Part shown: piece by piece, positions 12,216 through 36,894 of the stretch
How the letters are laid out: the number at the start of each line of letters is the position of its first letter
How positions within the stretch are numbered: the stretch's first letter is position 1
From: Escherichia phage Mt1B1_P17
Reading direction: 5' to 3' (one strand)
Length of the DNA: 64,000 nt
Sequence record: NC_052662.1
The notes under the pieces: model-generated
Seen by the model: only the letters and a program-made list of their open reading frames with translations
What the model was told of the DNA's origin: nothing
Database searches by the model: none
Translations under genes and position numbers: made by a program

Positions 12216-12304
12216 GATGATAATCTCTCTGTTGTGAGCGGCTGGACCATTCCGCCGCCCTATGTGATACATCTTATCAGGTTGTTGTTTGTTGTCAATA
12301 CTTT

Positions 12305-12502
12305 TTATTCTATCCCTGCAATTTGATTAACGCGCTTGCATTTTGTAGCGTGCTGGTCTTCTGTAATGACTCCCATTTCTAACAGGGAATCAATGAAAGA
12401 TAAAACCGTTTCATGATCATCCTGGGGATGACTGAACTCAGTAAAACCGTTTACTATTACGTTGATTTGTCCAGCTTTCGCCACAATATGCAATGTTGCC
12501 AT
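12305..12502 (-). CDS. hypothetical early protein (65 aa)
   Basis: ORF; RBS; TTGACG-N17-TAGTAT promoter about 150 nt upstream. Confidence 0.4.
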   Translation of the reverse strand: MATLHIVAKAGQINVIVNGFTEFSHPQDDHETVLSFIDSLLEMGVITEDQHATKCKRVNQIAGIE

Positions 12503-12775
12503 GATCTTAACTCCAGGTGATGAATGATGTTTTTTGTTGGTGGACGGTGGATTATGGAGATCCTCACCTTTGCCCGTCCTGCATTGCGCCCTCCTGTTGT
12601 TTATTGTCGTTGTGCCGCGCCCCCCTCGACAAGATGAATACTACGCTACCAGGTGAGGAACGTCAACCACTTTTTCAATCTTTTTTATTTTCTTTTTGCT
12701 TGCTATGTATAAAGGAAAGGGCTATTATCTTTCTACCGCGCCAACCAGGGCGCACAACAAAGAAAGGGCGACACC

Positions 12776-13042
12776 ATGACAAATACTACATTACACCTTA
12801 TGCACTCATTGGGCTGGCAAGGCGGAACGGTGCACCAGGTAGCAAGCGCAACGGGCTTAAAGGTTGAAACAGTTCTCAACCTGGGCGATCATAAGGTGGA
12901 AGAGATAGATCATTTTGATACGTTCGCAAATGGTTATCTATGGGCTTGCAGTGGCGGCGGGGAAAGCAAGATACCACCAGGGGCGCGGGGCGATATGTAT
13001 TTTTGGTTAGGTGTCCTATCCTGGCAAGAAAACAAAAAATAA
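12776..13042 (+). CDS. hypothetical protein (88 aa), plus strand inside a minus-strand block
   Basis: ORF with weak RBS; GC-rich surroundings; uncertain. Confidence 0.3.
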   Translation: MTNTTLHLMHSLGWQGGTVHQVASATGLKVETVLNLGDHKVEEIDHFDTFANGYLWACSGGGESKIPPGARGDMYFWLGVLSWQENKK

Positions 13043-13044
13043 TC

Positions 13045-13073
13045 TTGACAAGCCCAGGGATCGGGCTTATACT
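13045..13073 (+). promoter_or_regulatory. near-consensus sigma70 promoter TTGACA-N17-TATACT with no downstream ORF
   Basis: -35 at 13045..13050, -10 at 13068..13073; followed by about 200 nt of GC-rich untranslated sequence. Confidence 0.5.
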
Positions 13074-13292
13074 GTTTTACATACAGAAGAGGAAGCGCCA
13101 CCCCACGGCGTAAAGGCGGGGCTAACATACCAGGGGGCACTGGTTGGAAGGTTGATCGCCGGTAGGCTGGGCGCTATATATTTGTAAAGAAATGTAAAGA
13201 TAAAATAATCACTTGCTTTCCTGGCTGGATCTGTTATTCTTATTACATGGCGAGGGGACACGGGAGCGCGAGACAAACACCGCCCCTGCGCG

Positions 13293-13407
13293 TCATTCTC
13301 TAAATGAGAATGATTATCATTTACTTTATTAAATAAGAATCAATCTCATTTATAAACTTAAATGCGAATCATTATCATTTGCATTTCCACATGAGAACTC
13401 TTCTCAT
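13293..13407. promoter_or_regulatory. cluster of four Fur-box-like imperfect palindromes
   Basis: ATGAGAATGATTATCATT (13304..13321), AGAATCAATCTCATT (13335..13350), ATGCGAATCATTATCATTTGCAT (13362..13384), ATGAGAA-CTC-TTCTCAT (13391..13407); read directly. Confidence 0.45.
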
Positions 13408-13427
13408 TCCCACCTGCATAAATTTTT

Positions 13428-13606
13428 GTAAACTTTAAATTTTGGTTTTGTACTTTCATTTTTGTAAAAGCAAAAAAACTTTAAATACTGTGGGCGCGCA
13501 AAATTTTTAAAATTTTCCTTGACTTTTGAGTTTTGTTTTGTATCTAACATTTTAAGATAATTTTCCTAAACTTTAAATTTTGGTTTTCAACTTTCACTTT
13601 TGTAAA
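13428..13606. repeat. two about 40-bp direct repeats (AAACTTTAAATTTTGGTTTTG/CAACTTTCA...TTTTGTAAA) in AT-rich intergenic DNA
   Basis: Copies at 13428..13468 and 13566..13606; extra AAACTTTAAAT-type and TTTGAGAT motifs nearby. Confidence 0.5.
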
Positions 13607-13857
13607 TTCTTAAAAAGTTTAAATAATTTGAGGAATTTTTGAGATAATAGGTAGTGGGAATTTGAGATAACCTTTAATCTTGTTGGTAAACCTTCAGGAA
13701 CCCACCTAGATCAAATCTTAGCAATGCAAACTGAAAAAGATAAGTGTTCGTATAGGACAAAATAATAGGCTCTCTACGGTGCTGTAGGAGCCTTATTTCT
13801 GTGCTACAAAGTGACGCCTTTGTTCTAAAAATGAAAAAAGTTAAAATATCACAAATA

Positions 13858-14391
13858 TCATCTTTGCGGTATTTTGTCTGGGAAAAGTATTTCTATCAGT
13901 TTGTTATGATATTTACCTAAAAGATTCTGTCCTTTCCAGGTGGCAGGGTTTAGCACCCCTGGTTCATACATCCCCATTCCAATTCCGTATACCTTATCGT
14001 AAGGACTTGCTTCAACAAATGTTTTGTATTGATATAGACGTAAATCGGCATACAAGTCTGGATTCTGTACATACTTCAAGCATAAACCTCGCATAACAAT
14101 ACGCTCACGATTCTCTTCCCATATTTTGTTATCGAAACCTGCTACTGCCCTACCCATACGTTTGTAATAAGCTTGTATCTTCTCATCTTCTCGTTTTAAG
14201 CTATGAGTCAGAATAGCTTGTGCGTTGTTGTGATCGTTAAAGAGCAAAGCTTTACGCCACATCATATATTGTTCTACACAGTTAAATGTTTCATTGTAAC
14301 CTGGTTCGGTTTCTGTAAAGGGTGCAATATACCAATTACTAAACACATCTTTATGTGAAAAGAAGAATACATATTCATCAGTTATTCTCAT
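13858..14391 (-). CDS. NADAR / YbiA-like (DUF1768-type) domain protein
   Basis: Motifs FFF...FSNWY, ...MMWRKALLFND, GRAVAGFD, LVEASPYD..YGIG match the NADAR family pattern from memory; not confirmed by search. Confidence 0.55.
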   Translation of the reverse strand: MRITDEYVFFFSHKDVFSNWYIAPFTETEPGYNETFNCVEQYMMWRKALLFNDHNNAQAILTHSLKREDEKIQAYYKRMGRAVAGFDNKIWEENRERIVMRGLCLKYVQNPDLYADLRLYQYKTFVEASPYDKVYGIGMGMYEPGVLNPATWKGQNLLGKYHNKLIEILFPDKIPQR

Positions 14392-14567
14392 TTTTTCATG
14401 CCTCCTAAGACTTCAGCTTGCCCGTCTTGAAAAGCTTTCATCAGAACTATCTTAAGATTGACTTCCAAACGTTCTTCATCCTCTCTATAACAATCCAACA
14501 CTGCTTTAAGTTCATCATAGTGGTTCAGAATAGGTTTAAAGATTTCATGATCTGCTAAACGTGCCAT
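14388..14567 (-). CDS. hypothetical protein, about 59 aa
   Basis: Internal Met with RBS AAAGGAG. Confidence 0.4.
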   Translation of the reverse strand: MARLADHEIFKPILNHYDELKAVLDCYREDEERLEVNLKIVLMKAFQDGQAEVLGGMKK

Positions 14568-14580
14568 AGTTTCTCCTTTG

Positions 14581-14946
14581 TTAGTCCATCCACCAGTAGC
14601 CATAAACTGCGTCTGCGTCGATGAGTTTGTGTTTGTTGTTCCGCATGTAGTCTAAGATAAGTAGACGTTTATTGTATCTGGAGAGATTATGACCCTCTTT
14701 TCCGCCATAGTCAAAATATTTTGCAAGATCTTTGCACTCAAACAAAATTAGTTCGGGAGTTTCTTCACACTGGTCTGTCTGGTACACTTGACGAATGATC
14801 ATGTATACATCATCGTCTTCCGCTAAATGCTCTACTGGTCCACATCCAGCAGGAACAAATTCATAGTCCCATCTGATCAGATGTTTCTCTACTGCTTCAA
14901 AGAAGTCCATTCTTTCGTTGCGCATAATTTGAACGTCAACTAACAT
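14581..14946 (-). CDS. hypothetical protein (121 aa)
   Basis: ORF; RBS CAGGAGGAAAC. Confidence 0.45.
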   Translation of the reverse strand: MLVDVQIMRNERMDFFEAVEKHLIRWDYEFVPAGCGPVEHLAEDDDVYMIIRQVYQTDQCEETPELILFECKDLAKYFDYGGKEGHNLSRYNKRLLILDYMRNNKHKLIDADAVYGYWWMD

Positions 14947-15947
14947 GTTTCCTCCTGTAATATTCCACCATAAAGTTTATAAATGTTTTGTATTGATGCC
15001 AGACAAGATAGCTCCACTGTTTCTGTGTAGCCGTCTGGCATAGCATATTTGCTCACTGCTTCTGTGTCTAACACCTTTTTGCAATACTTTTCTGAATTTT
15101 TGCACTGCTTCACAGTGGGGAACTGCCACACTTGAACTTGTCTCATAGTAAACACATTGCGGCTATTCTGTTCTTTGATACGGCGATCACTACTATTGGC
15201 AATACCAAACTTCAGTGCACAAAGAATACCATCTTCATCATAAATATGATTAATGTAACATTGTTGTTGGTTTTGGCCCCCGCACTGCGGACACCCACTC
15301 CCCTTATGTAGCAAACCATCTGCACGCCCTATCTGTTCCCCGTGCTCCTTACATCCATATTTAAACTTACCCATTGTTGAAGGTTTACCGATCCATCCTA
15401 CCCATATATATCCTCTCCTTTCTACTTCCTTTCTTGTTCTATAGGTGGTCTGATCCTCTGTGTATTTGTAACTTGTAGAACAGCGGCAAGGGAGACACCC
15501 ACGTTTAAGATGACTTCCGGTAGCATAGAATTTACCATCACACACCCCAGCTTCCACATATTCATCATGAGAGCAAACAGGACATTCAACCATCCATACT
15601 ATATCACACCCTTTACGTTCCCCTGTATTGGTGAAAATAGTGCCTTCCTTAAATTTACCTACCTTCATAAAATCTTGTATGTGTTGCTGGTCTGGAATAG
15701 TGATAGCTTTGCTTCTCTTTTTCGAACGTTCCCTGTAGGCGCACTTAGGACAACCTCGACCATCTTTAAAACTGTGAAACGTTGTAGTATTCCATTCATG
15801 ACCATGCTCACAACGATTGATCATCTTCGTATGCACACCTTTATCTTCTCCATACGTGCCGAGAATGGTAATCCCTTTAGCCTCAGCTATCGGCTTACAT
15901 TCTTCCATATATGTTTCAATACTCTTCTTTACTGACATATCTAACAA
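14940..15947 (-). CDS. Cys-rich (multiple CxxC zinc-ribbon-like) protein with C-terminal T5orf172-type domain
   Basis: C-terminal FGIANSSDRRIKEQN...PDGYTET motif shared with CDS 20722..21708; several CxxC pairs in N-terminal half. Confidence 0.5.
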   Translation of the reverse strand: MLDMSVKKSIETYMEECKPIAEAKGITILGTYGEDKGVHTKMINRCEHGHEWNTTTFHSFKDGRGCPKCAYRERSKKRSKAITIPDQQHIQDFMKVGKFKEGTIFTNTGERKGCDIVWMVECPVCSHDEYVEAGVCDGKFYATGSHLKRGCLPCRCSTSYKYTEDQTTYRTRKEVERRGYIWVGWIGKPSTMGKFKYGCKEHGEQIGRADGLLHKGSGCPQCGGQNQQQCYINHIYDEDGILCALKFGIANSSDRRIKEQNSRNVFTMRQVQVWQFPTVKQCKNSEKYCKKVLDTEAVSKYAMPDGYTETVELSCLASIQNIYKLYGGILQEETC

Positions 15948-15967
15948 TTCTCTTCCTATTAAACTGA

Positions 15968-15998
15968 AATCAATATAACAAAACCCGCCGAAGCGGGT
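15968..15998 (-). terminator. intrinsic terminator AAACCCGC-TTCG-GCGGGTTT plus T-tract
   Basis: Perfect 8-bp stem; minus-strand U-tract TTTTGTTATATT. Confidence 0.55.
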
Positions 15999-16016
15999 TT
16001 AGCTATTTGTGCTGTA

Positions 16017-17156
16017 TCAGAATACGCTACCCAGTGTGGTAGATCGCTGCGTTACAGGCTCCAGCACCACTCGCAGAGTGTTTCCTGGTGTAGTGCTCAT
16101 CACCAGGATCTTACCACCTTCAATCAGATCACAAGTTAGACCATCAGCAGTTGCACATAGATCAATATGTGGGTCGCCATCTTCGTCTAGGATAACATAA
16201 CTATTGGTTTCCATTGCTTCCACTTCATCATCTTTCAAGCTTTGTAGATAGATGTTCAAGGAACAAGCACCCGACAAAAACTTAGTAGGGGTAAAGTCGT
16301 GCCAGTTATTGATCCAATTCACCTTCAAGGTTTTGCCATTAGCTACAATAGAAGCCACATTCCATTTAGCATCATTGCCTAAAGAAATACCCATCATTTC
16401 AAGACATTCTTTAAAAGTCATTTTTGGATAGAAATTCAATTCTTCTACAATGCCTTGAATAACATCGAAAGACAACTCTGTGCTAACATCCCATAAACGT
16501 TGGAAGTTATCTACGTGTTTTTTATTTACCAAGTTCTTATCCAAGTAATCTAACATAGTTTCACTAGACAGTTTATCGTAATTGAAACTGTAGTAGATAC
16601 GACTAGGACGGTTTACAAAATATTCCGAGATATAGCCACTATTTTTAGTGAGGATGTAAAGTTTATTCCCACTTCCTGTTCCATCCAACAAGGTCAACAG
16701 TGCTTCCTGATCTTCTTTCTTAGCGTACACTTTATCAAATTCGTCAAATAAAACAACAGCACGATCTGTAATTTTACTCATAAATTCTAAGAAGCCAGCA
16801 TCTGTGTAAGGCTGTGTAACCAAAATGGTTGGAATACCTAAACCTTCTGTGGACATTAGAGACATGCTAATCAGTTTAGCTAACATCGTCTTACCACTGC
16901 CTTTTGTCCCTGTCAGTAACACCCCAGTATTTTTACCTTCTTTACTACGACGAGCAAATGTTTTAATAACATGTGCGGCGCGATCTTTAGTTTCCCCATA
17001 AAGAGTGTTCGGAAGAGAGAAACTTTCACCACGCACTAAAGAGTAGTTACCGTGCGGATCGCAGTTGACAACCCAAACTCCAGCAGGAAGTTTATTAGCT
17101 TCAACACCATATTCCTTATTTACAACAGCCACATCTCCAAAAATAGTGTATTTCAT
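16017..17156 (-). CDS. AAA-type P-loop ATPase
   Basis: Walker A GTKGSGKT and Walker B VVLFDEFDK. Confidence 0.6.
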   Translation of the reverse strand: MKYTIFGDVAVVNKEYGVEANKLPAGVWVVNCDPHGNYSLVRGESFSLPNTLYGETKDRAAHVIKTFARRSKEGKNTGVLLTGTKGSGKTMLAKLISMSLMSTEGLGIPTILVTQPYTDAGFLEFMSKITDRAVVLFDEFDKVYAKKEDQEALLTLLDGTGSGNKLYILTKNSGYISEYFVNRPSRIYYSFNYDKLSSETMLDYLDKNLVNKKHVDNFQRLWDVSTELSFDVIQGIVEELNFYPKMTFKECLEMMGISLGNDAKWNVASIVANGKTLKVNWINNWHDFTPTKFLSGACSLNIYLQSLKDDEVEAMETNSYVILDEDGDPHIDLCATADGLTCDLIEGGKILVMSTTPGNTLRVVLEPVTQRSTTLGSVF

Positions 17157-33641: not shown

Positions 33642-34298
33642 ATGACTATTAAACATATCTCTTTTGATGTATGGAACACACTGATCACAGCAAACTCCAA
33701 TTACGCAGACATGCGAGCCTGGACTATCGCAAAATATGGAGATATTACGGAAGTGGAAGCAAGAGCAGCTTATAAAAAGATCAAAAAGGAACTGGATAAT
33801 GCAGCACTTCAAGGCAAAGCCGAGTGTGCAGCATACGCCTGGGAAAGACTTGGTTCTGAACTTGGGATAACGCCTTGGAAGTCTGCAAAGCTTCGTTTCG
33901 AGTGTGAACAGTGGTTCCTTAAGTTTCCACCACACGTAGCCGTGGATCTGCCGATGTACTTGCTGTATCTTTCAGGGCGTTATGATTTGAGTATTAAGAG
34001 CAATACCAACTTCATATCAGGGGATATCCTGCGTCGTGCTTGTAAGTTTGATAGTTGGAATTGTTTTGAGTTCACCCATTTCTCGGATGAAGCTTTACTT
34101 TGTAAACCAGATCCGCGATTCTTTGCTCGCACGCTCACGTATTCTCCGATCCCTCTGTTAGGGCACGAAGTGTTGCACGTAGGCGATAGTGAAGAATATG
34201 ATGGAAAATGTGTTGACTTAGGATTTAACTTCTGTCATATTAAGAACCCTAACGACTTACTAGAGAAACTTAAAAGAGGAGAAATTGTAAATGCGTAA
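33642..34298 (+). CDS. HAD-superfamily hydrolase/phosphatase-like protein
   Basis: HAD motifs I FDVWNTL, II IKSNTN, III KPDPRFF, IV VGDSEEYD in correct order. Confidence 0.55.
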   Translation: MTIKHISFDVWNTLITANSNYADMRAWTIAKYGDITEVEARAAYKKIKKELDNAALQGKAECAAYAWERLGSELGITPWKSAKLRFECEQWFLKFPPHVAVDLPMYLLYLSGRYDLSIKSNTNFISGDILRRACKFDSWNCFEFTHFSDEALLCKPDPRFFARTLTYSPIPLLGHEVLHVGDSEEYDGKCVDLGFNFCHIKNPNDLLEKLKRGEIVNA

Positions 34299-35118
34299 TC
34301 AAACTCAAATTTTTGCAAATAAATTTGATGACCTGGAAACTGCTACTTTTGATATCCAAGATTATTCAAAATTAAAATTTGGTAGTAACCAAGCTGCGCG
34401 TCGTATGGGTAAAGAATTAGCACTTCAGTTTTTTGCTCAAGTGGCAATGAAACATATTGGGGAACAATTTGTTATCATTCCTTCTCCTTATAACCATGTG
34501 CATAATGCTGCAACAATGATGACAGATCATTTTATTAATTATTTTAATATGTTGCAATCACAATATGATCAAGGTCGTTCAGCAGAACTGGACATTATTC
34601 ATCGTAAAGTTAGCTATATCAACGATTATGGTTTCTTGGATAAAGCTAGTCGTAAGAAACTTATTGATGGGGATACATTCTACTGCAACAAAGAATTCTG
34701 GGGTGATAAGAAGCTTGTATTCATTGATGATGTAAATATCACTGGAACGCATGAAGACAAACTGATTGAGATCCTTGATGAAAATCAAGTTAAAAATGAT
34801 GTTTACTTCTTGTATTTTGCAAAATACGAAGGTAATCAAGCAGATACCGAAGCTAAACTGAATTTTAACTACATTAATACACCAGAAGCGTTTGTTAAAA
34901 TGATTAATGAAGAACGTGATGCACAGTGTCTTGTTCGTCCTATTAAGTATCTTATGGGCCAAAATCATGAAGACTTCAAAATCATTCTTAGCCAATTGCC
35001 ACATTACTATGTAGAGCAACTTTTCTTTGGATGTTTGGGAGAAGGTTACAACCGAATTTCAAAGTATGCTGAAAACTTTGAATTCTTGGATCGTTACACA
35101 AAACAACACATTCTGTAA
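34291..35118 (+). CDS. phosphoribosyltransferase (type I PRTase) domain protein
   Basis: PRPP-binding motif KLVFIDDVNITGTHED. Confidence 0.5.
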   Translation: MRNQTQIFANKFDDLETATFDIQDYSKLKFGSNQAARRMGKELALQFFAQVAMKHIGEQFVIIPSPYNHVHNAATMMTDHFINYFNMLQSQYDQGRSAELDIIHRKVSYINDYGFLDKASRKKLIDGDTFYCNKEFWGDKKLVFIDDVNITGTHEDKLIEILDENQVKNDVYFLYFAKYEGNQADTEAKLNFNYINTPEAFVKMINEERDAQCLVRPIKYLMGQNHEDFKIILSQLPHYYVEQLFFGCLGEGYNRISKYAENFEFLDRYTKQHIL

Positions 35119-35132
35119 TAAGGAGCTAAAAA

Positions 35133-35606
35133 ATGCTTAAAATGAAAAGAGGTAATCTTATTGATGCCGCTAAAGCAGGTGAAGTAACTGTTATTGCTCA
35201 TTGTTGCAACTGTATGTGTAATATGGGGGCAGGTATTGCCCCACAAATCAAACAAGCATTTCCTTACGCATATGCAGCAGACTTAGACACAATGGCTGGT
35301 GATCAAAGTAAACTAGGTTGTTTTAGTTTAGGGGTGCCAGACGAACAATCAGACCCTTTGGTATATAATCTATACGGGCAATACCGTTACGGATACAATG
35401 CTAAAGGTCGTCAGTTGGACTATGATGCACTTTACGATGCACTAATAGCTATGGCTAACGATTTGCTTCTCCGTGACCAAAAATGTAAGATCGGCTTACC
35501 TATGATTGGCGCTGGATATGCTGGAGGTAATTGGGCTATCATCCAAGTGATGATTGAAGAAACTTTAGTAAAAACAGGTCACGATGTGACTATTTATAAA
35601 CTTTAA
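35133..35606 (+). CDS. macro domain (ADP-ribose-binding/hydrolase-like) protein
   Basis: N-terminal VIAHCCN...GAGIA and C-terminal GLPMIGAGYAGG resemble macro-domain glycine-rich motifs. Confidence 0.55.
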   Translation: MLKMKRGNLIDAAKAGEVTVIAHCCNCMCNMGAGIAPQIKQAFPYAYAADLDTMAGDQSKLGCFSLGVPDEQSDPLVYNLYGQYRYGYNAKGRQLDYDALYDALIAMANDLLLRDQKCKIGLPMIGAGYAGGNWAIIQVMIEETLVKTGHDVTIYKL

Positions 35607-35919: not shown

Positions 35920-36894
35920 ATGCAACTTGGTTTCCCAATTATTGATGTAGTTGTTTTAGTTGGTATTTTAGCATTGTCTATTGGTATTGATTTCTTTGGT
36001 CACAAAGAAAATAAAGAAATTTCATTCAAATCCGCAGTTGGTTGGTCGATCTTTTGGATTGGTGTATCATTAGCTTATTATGGTTTTGTATACTTCCAAC
36101 ATGGTGCCGATTTTGCTAACTTGTTTTTAAGTGGATATGTGTTGGAAAAATCTTTGTCGGTAGATAACTTAGTAGTATTTGTAGCAGTATTCGCAAGTTT
36201 TGGTATTAAAAGCACACACTTGCAGCACAAGATTCTACTTTGGGGTATTGCAGGTGCGATTGTCTTCCGAGGTGTGTTTGTAGCAGTAGGCACTTACTTG
36301 TTAAGTTTGGGCTGGTATGTTAATATCTTCTTCGGTGCGGTCATCCTTTTCTGTGCAGCTAAAATGGTATTTGCTGGAGATAATGACGCAGAAGTTGATT
36401 ACTCTAAACACTGGGCTACCCGTATTGTTCGTAAACTGTTCCCTGTATCTAATAAAATGGATGGGGAGAAGTTCTTCACAATCGAAAATGGTGTTCGTGT
36501 AGCAACTCCAGCTTTGGTTTGCGTATTCGTGATGGAAATGGTTGATGTAATCTTTGCAGTAGATTCTGTTCCGGCAGTGATCGCAGTAACACAAGAACCT
36601 CTGCTTGTATTCTCTTCGATGTTATGTGCAATCTTAGGTCTACGTGCTCTGTTCTTTGTTCTTAGTGTTGCACTGAAGTATCTGGTTCACTTGGAGAAAG
36701 CAGTTATTGTGGTTCTGGTGTTTGTAGGTGTTAAACTGATGTATCACCCGTTTGCAGAAACGTTACATGAAAAAATGAGCTTCCTGCCAGCGCACATTGA
36801 TCCAACTATTAGTATGTATATTGTCCTGGGCACATTAGCTCTTGGTGTTATTGCAAGCTTTATCTTCCCTGAAAAAGAAGAAGCTACTGTTTAA
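35920..36894 (+). CDS. terC: TerC-family integral membrane protein
   Basis: Multiple hydrophobic helices and the TerC-type motif LEKSLSVDNLVVF. Confidence 0.6.
   Translation: MQLGFPIIDVVVLVGILALSIGIDFFGHKENKEISFKSAVGWSIFWIGVSLAYYGFVYFQHGADFANLFLSGYVLEKSLSVDNLVVFVAVFASFGIKSTHLQHKILLWGIAGAIVFRGVFVAVGTYLLSLGWYVNIFFGAVILFCAAKMVFAGDNDAEVDYSKHWATRIVRKLFPVSNKMDGEKFFTIENGVRVATPALVCVFVMEMVDVIFAVDSVPAVIAVTQEPLLVFSSMLCAILGLRALFFVLSVALKYLVHLEKAVIVVLVFVGVKLMYHPFAETLHEKMSFLPAHIDPTISMYIVLGTLALGVIASFIFPEKEEATV

Follow-up and report, generated by a model that had tools for sequence, protein, structure and literature searches.

The open reading frame (ORF) at positions 13858..14391 of the DNA analysed here, a stretch of 64,000 nucleotides from Escherichia phage Mt1B1_P17 (NC_052662.1; the window), raises the question of whether the phage encodes an enzyme that removes ADP-ribose from nucleic acids and, if so, against which host defence such an enzyme would act. 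An earlier note on this DNA had proposed a NADAR/YbiA-like protein that reverses DarT-type modifications, and had named a family search, structure prediction and inspection of the catalytic residues as ways of checking the proposal. A 5-kb piece around the gene had 97.7% identity with Escherichia phage BI-EHEC, compared with about 92-93% for phAPEC8, and the window was therefore assigned to a phAPEC8-like Phapecoctavirus (Stephanstirmvirinae).

The span 13858..14391 proved to be exactly that of the ORF with its stop codon counted in, so that the ORF exists as claimed; its strand, unstated in the earlier note, is the minus one, and it encodes 177 amino acids plus the stop. The coding sequence was characterised by ORF listing, Pfam (PF08719), an AF2 model, Foldseek, a residue map and dN/dS. 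The NADAR motifs FFFSHKDVFSNWY, MMWRKALLFND, GRAVAGFD and YGIG were all present in the translated ORF; the only slip in the motif list as quoted was LVEASPYD, which actually reads FVEASPYD. Direct reading of the sequence identified a Shine-Dalgarno element, AGGAGG, at 14401..14406 on the minus strand, 9 nt upstream of the ATG, which constitutes a strong ribosome-binding site. The ATG itself (14389-14391) overlaps the TGA (14388-14390) of an upstream 71-aa ORF in the form ATGA, suggesting from the sequence that translation of the two genes is coupled within an operon. On the same strand, 66 nt past the stop codon, a hairpin of the intrinsic-terminator type (GGCUCCUAC...GUAGAGAGCC) with a U-rich tract after it (UAUUAUUUUG) occupies 13758..13792, and RNA folding of 13740-13860(-) gave -27.3 kcal/mol (z=-3.7), with none of 200 shuffles equally stable. 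The phAPEC8 record carries an annotated terminator at the equivalent place, and the hairpin closes the minus-strand operon that holds the NADAR gene. A scan for consensus promoters and terminators returned sites no more numerous than expected by chance and missed this terminator because its stem carries a bulge. Comparison with phAPEC8 and SF1-1 gave a dN/dS of about 0.06 at a dS of 0.4-0.5, and the NADAR gene is therefore under strong purifying selection.

The protein matched the Pfam family NADAR (PF08719, DUF1768) with 123.5 bits (E=1.3e-35) against a gathering cut-off of 35.1 bits, covering profile positions 3-154 of 163, and matched phrog_1017 in PHROG (E=5e-50). Its best solved relative by sequence was PDB 8BAU, the P. 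nicotianae NADAR (PnNADAR) with ADP-ribose (E=7e-15). An AF2 model computed from 58 homologues reached a pLDDT of 96.2 and a pTM of 0.90, and Foldseek returned only 8BAU (TM 0.79, E 6e-10) and E. coli YbiA (2B3W; TM 0.69-0.73) as significant PDB matches; the predicted fold has the YbiA-like alpha-helical core with small flanking beta-sheets. Schuller et al. (2023) listed as ADP-ribose-contacting or catalytic residues of PnNADAR E43, K50, K75, R79, Y84, D86, W89, R93, E125, D130 and W133, which in the computed alignment correspond to E40, K47, K77, R81, F86, N88, W91, R95, E127, D132 and Y135, respectively, in the Mt1B1_P17 protein. Eight of these 11 residues (E40, K47, K77, R81, W91, R95, E127 and D132) are identical in the two proteins, and the remaining three are conservative replacements that are each also found in other members (F86 for Y, N88 for D and Y135 for W). 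Among the 58 aligned homologues E40, K47, W91, E127 and D132 were invariant, while position 86 (F or Y), position 88 (N, D, E or Q) and position 135 (W or Y) show normal family variation; N88 stands in for a residue touching the adenosine ribose that is acidic in PnNADAR (D) and in Bas61 (E). The ORF thus encodes a genuine NADAR protein, as the earlier note had proposed: a family hit far above the cut-off was obtained, the predicted structure is that of a NADAR, and the active-site residues are intact.

Four NADAR families are recognised, namely general NADAR, YbiA-type, T4-like phage NADAR and DarG1 (PMC12945103), and sequence scores place the Mt1B1_P17 protein with the general NADAR family. 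In a PDB search with the family profile, PnNADAR scored 126 bits and YbiA 63 bits, and the solved G. lovleyi DarG1 structures were not reached at E<=0.01, while phmmer gave 58.3 bits to 8BAU versus 13.6 bits (E=0.38) to E. coli YbiA. This assignment agrees with the published placement of AdfN(Bas60), which Johannesman et al. (2025) put among the non-YbiA, non-DarG1 bacterial NADARs (PMC11825919). PnNADAR resembles the phage protein in its Glu at the E125 position as well as in the shared ADP-ribose contacts, but it is eukaryotic, only 28% identical, and has different N-terminal and internal extensions.

The other families were considered in turn and rejected. E. coli YbiA shares the fold and the Glu at the E125-equivalent position, but the phage protein is closer to PnNADAR by both phmmer and profile score, and it is without riboflavin or LexA-operon neighbours. 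DarG1 (the BC4488 subfamily) belongs to the same superfamily and shares the proposed chemistry, the reversal of DarT1 guanine N2-ADP-ribosylation, but differs in having a beta1-beta2-alpha1 N-terminal DNA-binding extension (the NADAR core of the Mt1B1_P17 protein starts at residue 5), an Asp instead of Glu at the key catalytic position, and an operon with DarT1, of which there is no adjacent copy here; as noted above, the profile also misses DarG1. T4 gp30.3, or AdfN(T4), is likewise a phage-encoded orphan NADAR, which removes guanine-linked ADP-ribose and counters DarTG1, but His replaces E127 in the T4 type, whose members require a T-even infection context to work, and the two proteins fall in different groups (phrog_1017 versus phrog_652, hhalign probability 16%). 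The DS-32 NADAR anti-phage protein (NF053876) was discarded at 14.3 bits against a cut-off of 240.

Upstream of the NADAR gene, co-oriented genes of the same transcription unit span 14388..17156 on the minus strand. By Pfam and PHROG these comprise an AAA ATPase (16017..17156), a CapR/treble-clef-domain protein called 'endonuclease' in relatives (14940..15947), a small ORF matching phrog_24465 (14581..14946) and, directly upstream of NADAR, the 71-aa ORF, which matches phrog_22330 (14388..14603); NADAR is the last gene of this operon and belongs to a block of small genes without known function. The protein encoded by 14940..15947(-) contains two CapR homology domain stretches and a treble-clef zinc-finger-like region, and its gene is conserved upstream of NADAR in Phapecoctavirus and Justusliebigvirus alike. 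No ADP-ribosyltransferase domain was detected in the upstream genes 14388..17156 in Pfam and PHROG scans, and none is annotated in the equivalent 50-kb region of SF1-1, making the gene an orphan, that is, a phage-encoded NADAR without a cognate ADP-ribosyltransferase alongside. Riboflavin genes were likewise absent nearby, both in a Pfam scan of the window and in the equivalent region of SF1-1.

On its 3' side the NADAR gene is followed by an ORF-poor stretch of about 1.3 kb (12503..13857), which has 97.1% identity to phAPEC8 across 1282 nt and is thus more conserved than the NADAR coding sequence itself (about 92%, dS 0.40). No tRNA was detected in the whole window, and Rfam gave no match in 12300-14000. 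The phAPEC8 gene G377_gp009 (113 aa, TTG start, Pro/Leu/Ser-rich) corresponds to 12934..13276(-), where the reading frame is split by a frameshift and, judged from the sequence, is probably not a gene. On the opposite strand, an 88-aa ORF at 12776..13042(+) points towards the NADAR gene; with a full-length match to phrog_19316 (E 2e-59), it is the more credible gene candidate. Nested inverted repeats with Fur-box-like sequences were seen at 13301..13381: 13306..13324 differs from GATAATGATAATCATTATC at 3 positions (0.03 such matches would be expected by chance per window), a similar sequence recurs near 13363..13381, and 200-nt windows over 13200-13499 had fold z-scores of -2.8 to -4.2 on both strands. 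These repeats could be a site of iron regulation or of host-factor binding; alternatively, they could terminate transcription in both directions between the convergent genes.

Orthologues of the gene were traced in related phages. Bas60-62 are phi92-like relatives of phAPEC8 and are now classed as Justusliebigvirus, a sister genus within the Stephanstirmvirinae. Across its full length the Mt1B1_P17 NADAR shares 59% of its residues (E 5e-69) with the NADAR of Bas61 (bas61_0107, QXV78236.1), so that 41% differ; the Bas61 and Bas62 (bas62_0106) proteins are 99% identical to each other, and these two served as stand-ins for the Bas60 sequence in all comparisons with AdfN(Bas60). All three compared proteins belong to phrog_1017. 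The genes preceding NADAR are also shared between Mt1B1_P17 and Bas61 (AAA ATPase, 64% identity; CapR protein, 59%), so that in both genera NADAR stands at the operon end after an AAA ATPase and a CapR gene, with the same active-site residues in the encoded protein. From the full-length identity together with the conserved gene order, the Mt1B1_P17 NADAR is therefore a syntenic orthologue of the Bas60-62 NADAR. A loop before K77 that is 7 residues longer, Tyr135 and an insertion after F25 are clade traits common to the Justusliebigvirus NADARs and the Mt1B1_P17 protein, which they separate from bacterial NADARs. The two genera differ in that the CapR gene and NADAR are separated in Phapecoctavirus by two small ORFs absent from Bas61, that the insertion after F25 comprises 10 residues in Mt1B1_P17 compared to 17 in Bas61, and that Bas61 has Y and E in place of F86 and N88.

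The searches gathered 801 homologues; 717 phage records had a homologue at E<=1e-5, and 126 phage records an intact orthologue (E<=1e-40). The 717 records were mostly from large virulent myoviruses, with Staphylococcus, Listeria, Enterococcus, Bacillus and enterobacteria as the predominant hosts. The phAPEC8 orthologue is G377_gp010, annotated as 'hypothetical protein', and elsewhere in public records (for example, PQ571307.1 82069..82611, KX664695.3 and OM386656.1) the orthologue is variously labelled 'GTP cyclohydrolase II', 'hypothetical protein' or 'YbiA-like N-glycosidase'. The first of these labels was rejected, since NADAR is the sole domain found by Pfam and no GTP cyclohydrolase II domain is present; the label most likely arose by annotation transfer via RibA-NADAR fusion proteins. 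In vB_EcoM_EP57 (OR544956.1, 130.7 kb), the match to the NADAR is confined to its C-terminal 42% (15974..16195, 97% identity), which points to a copy that has been truncated or disrupted, comparable to the inactive adfN allele of RB69.

For proteins of this kind, function has been described experimentally. Johannesman et al. (2025) reported that phage NADARs (AdfN) strip ADP-ribose from phage DNA and thereby defeat DarTG1; uninfected E. coli was protected by AdfN(Bas60) from DarT1 toxicity, and RB69, T5 and Bas25 plated again on DarTG1 hosts, while DarTG2 was unaffected (PMC11825919). As presented there, the effects of AdfN(Bas60) came from ectopic expression and not from deletion in the native phage, and DarT1 neutralisation combined with phage rescue is described for AdfN(Bas60), AdfN(Bas32) and AdfN(T4) only (PMC11825919). 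The characterised AdfN proteins depend on their catalytic residues. In-vitro hydrolysis of guanine-linked ADP-ribose by a NADAR is no guarantee of activity against DarT1 in cells, YbiA and T4 gp30.3 both having failed to protect cells from DarT1 (Cihlova 2024). A literature search for a link between Phapecoctavirus and DarTG returned only a passing list entry about Atd1.

Taken with the orthology to AdfN(Bas60), we estimate a probability of about 75% that the Mt1B1_P17 NADAR serves as an orphan guanine-ADP-ribose DNA ADP-ribosylglycohydrolase of the AdfN(Bas60) type against host DarTG1. The anti-defence role suggested in the earlier note gains support from this orthology, but its target is narrowed from DarT-type toxins in general to DarT1 and guanine N2-ADP-ribose. 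By analogy with the published proteins, the stand-alone NADAR would be made by the phage from the end of the minus-strand operon, presumably as an early gene product. Host DarT1 would ADP-ribosylate guanines of the phage DNA at N2 and thereby block replication. The NADAR would then bind the ADP-ribose, with K47, K77, R81, W91 and R95 holding the pyrophosphate and F86 stacking on the adenine, and the N-glycosidic bond between ribose and guanine would be cut, E127 and E40 lying at the distal ribose. Unmodified DNA would thus be restored and replication could proceed, the protein acting as a phage-borne orphan type IV antitoxin. The natural target could also be broader and include cytidine-linked or RNA-linked ADP-ribose.

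The same biochemical breadth gives rise to an alternative, in which the protein is an active ADP-ribosylglycohydrolase whose natural target is some other nucleic-acid ADP-ribosylation (cytidine-ADP-ribose, RNA guanine-ADP-ribose, or the product of a non-DarT toxin such as a pierisin/ScARP-like, YarT-like or undiscovered defence) and for which DarT1 reversal is a side activity. General NADAR and YbiA-type members have been reported to remove cytidine-linked ADP-ribose from DNA and RNA in addition to the guanine-linked form, and all NADAR families removed ADP-ribose from RNA guanine in vitro (PMC12945103); the Mt1B1_P17 protein scores with the general family (126 bits for PnNADAR, 63 for YbiA, no DarG1). 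NADARs, moreover, act on the modification whatever toxin made it, further ADP-ribosylating defences are expected by the authors who reported this, and the clade-specific loop insertion adjoins the pyrophosphate-binding K77 and R81. Set against this, cytidine-linked ADP-ribose was left in place by E. coli NADAR, DarG1 and T4 NADAR, and CmdA is listed as the enzyme that reverses the CmdT modification (PMC12945103); among E. coli anti-phage systems, none is known that ADP-ribosylates cytidine or RNA and is reversed by NADARs, and DarTG1 is the only defence reported to be countered by the Bas60 orthologue (PMC11825919). We regard this alternative as unlikely, although it deserves more weight than the following two.

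That the protein might instead be a housekeeping YbiA N-glycosidase, which destroys riboflavin intermediates (5-amino-6-ribosylamino-uracil derivatives) or a similar metabolite and has no defence role, is suggested by the labels 'GTP cyclohydrolase II' and 'YbiA-like N-glycosidase' that several records give the orthologue, by the Glu (E127) at the position used by de Souza and Aravind to define the YbiA subfamily, and by a Ter-type PRTase cluster in the phage genome, whose product may be a ribosylated metabolite. The NCBIfam model TIGR02464 ('riboflavin biosynthesis intermediates N-glycosidase', 'ribofla_fusion') was also passed, with 111.5 bits against a cut-off of 73.7; calibration, however, gave 109.8 bits for the Bas61 protein, 117.5 for PnNADAR and 169.9 for the true E. 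coli YbiA, so that this match is non-discriminating because the first two pass as well and YbiA scores far higher, and naming the protein a riboflavin N-glycosidase on the strength of this model was rejected. The low phmmer score to YbiA, the lack of riboflavin genes nearby and the placing of the Bas60 protein among non-YbiA bacterial NADARs by Johannesman et al. (PMC11825919) likewise speak against a metabolic function, which we consider highly improbable. Equally improbable is a non-catalytic inhibitor that binds ADP-ribose or protein and blocks an NAD+-consuming defence, after the model of a phage protein reported to inhibit Retron-Eco1. The ADP-ribose-binding pocket is fully conserved, but E40 and E127, the residues proposed to act in catalysis, vary in none of the 58 aligned homologues, which favours catalysis; characterised AdfN proteins need their catalytic residues, and the solved relatives that were found are 8BAU and 2B3W only.

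The earlier note had further suggested that the NADAR and a macro-domain protein at 35133..35606 together provide two independent ADP-ribose-processing activities. The macrodomain ORF (157 aa, plus strand) is real: although the Pfam Macro score was marginal (22.3 bits versus a cut-off of 22), the protein matched phrog_335 (E=8e-54), which also contains T4 Tk.4/AdfM (34% identity, E=7e-21 by BLASTP), and its PDB relatives were macrodomains, namely SCO6735 (5E3B, E=2.5e-12), TARG1 and 5M31, the DarG macrodomain. The protein, SCO6735 and Tk.4 all have a Gln where DarG and TARG1 have their catalytic Lys. The ORF is about 21 kb from the NADAR gene, at a separate locus with no physical linkage, within a Ter-type cluster of ComF-like PRTase, TerC and TerD-like genes; by Pfam it is flanked by a ComF-like PRTase_3 protein (34291..35118) and a TerC membrane protein (35920..36894). 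T4 Tk.4 was named AdfM in a 2025 preprint and is needed against DarTG2, and DarG2, TARG1 and SCO6735 have been listed as reversers of thymidine-linked DNA ADP-ribosylation (PMC12945103). By analogy, the macrodomain protein may be a companion enzyme that removes thymidine-linked ADP-ribose and counters DarTG2; a role in a Ter-type ribosylated-metabolite pathway is possible instead. Two independent activities in one phage are plausible on this basis, and since T4 combines a NADAR with the Tk.4/AdfM macrodomain, the idea has a direct precedent. A bolder joint reading, which we consider unlikely, is that the general NADAR and an SCO6735/AdfM-type macrodomain constitute a T4-independent DNA de-ADP-ribosylating pair covering guanine and thymidine; in its extreme version, the clade-specific loop beside the pyrophosphate-binding residues would retune the NADAR to a modification other than that of DarT1, such as the cytidine- or RNA-linked ADP-ribose of an undescribed enterobacterial defence.

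The AdfN principle is already known, having been published in 2023-2025, and no new mechanism is opened by the present analysis; what is new, as judged from the sequence comparisons, is a further candidate member of the AdfN(Bas60) type, found in Phapecoctavirus and orthologous to a published protein of the sister genus. The joint occurrence of a NADAR and a macrodomain eraser suggests that this combination is a recurrent solution in unrelated large myoviruses. The assignment of the NADAR can be used for annotation, for host-range prediction and for correction of the widespread mis-annotation of its orthologues. Phapecoctaviruses are common coliphages of broad host range, and an AdfN(Bas60)-type assignment predicts that they would be resistant to DarTG1.
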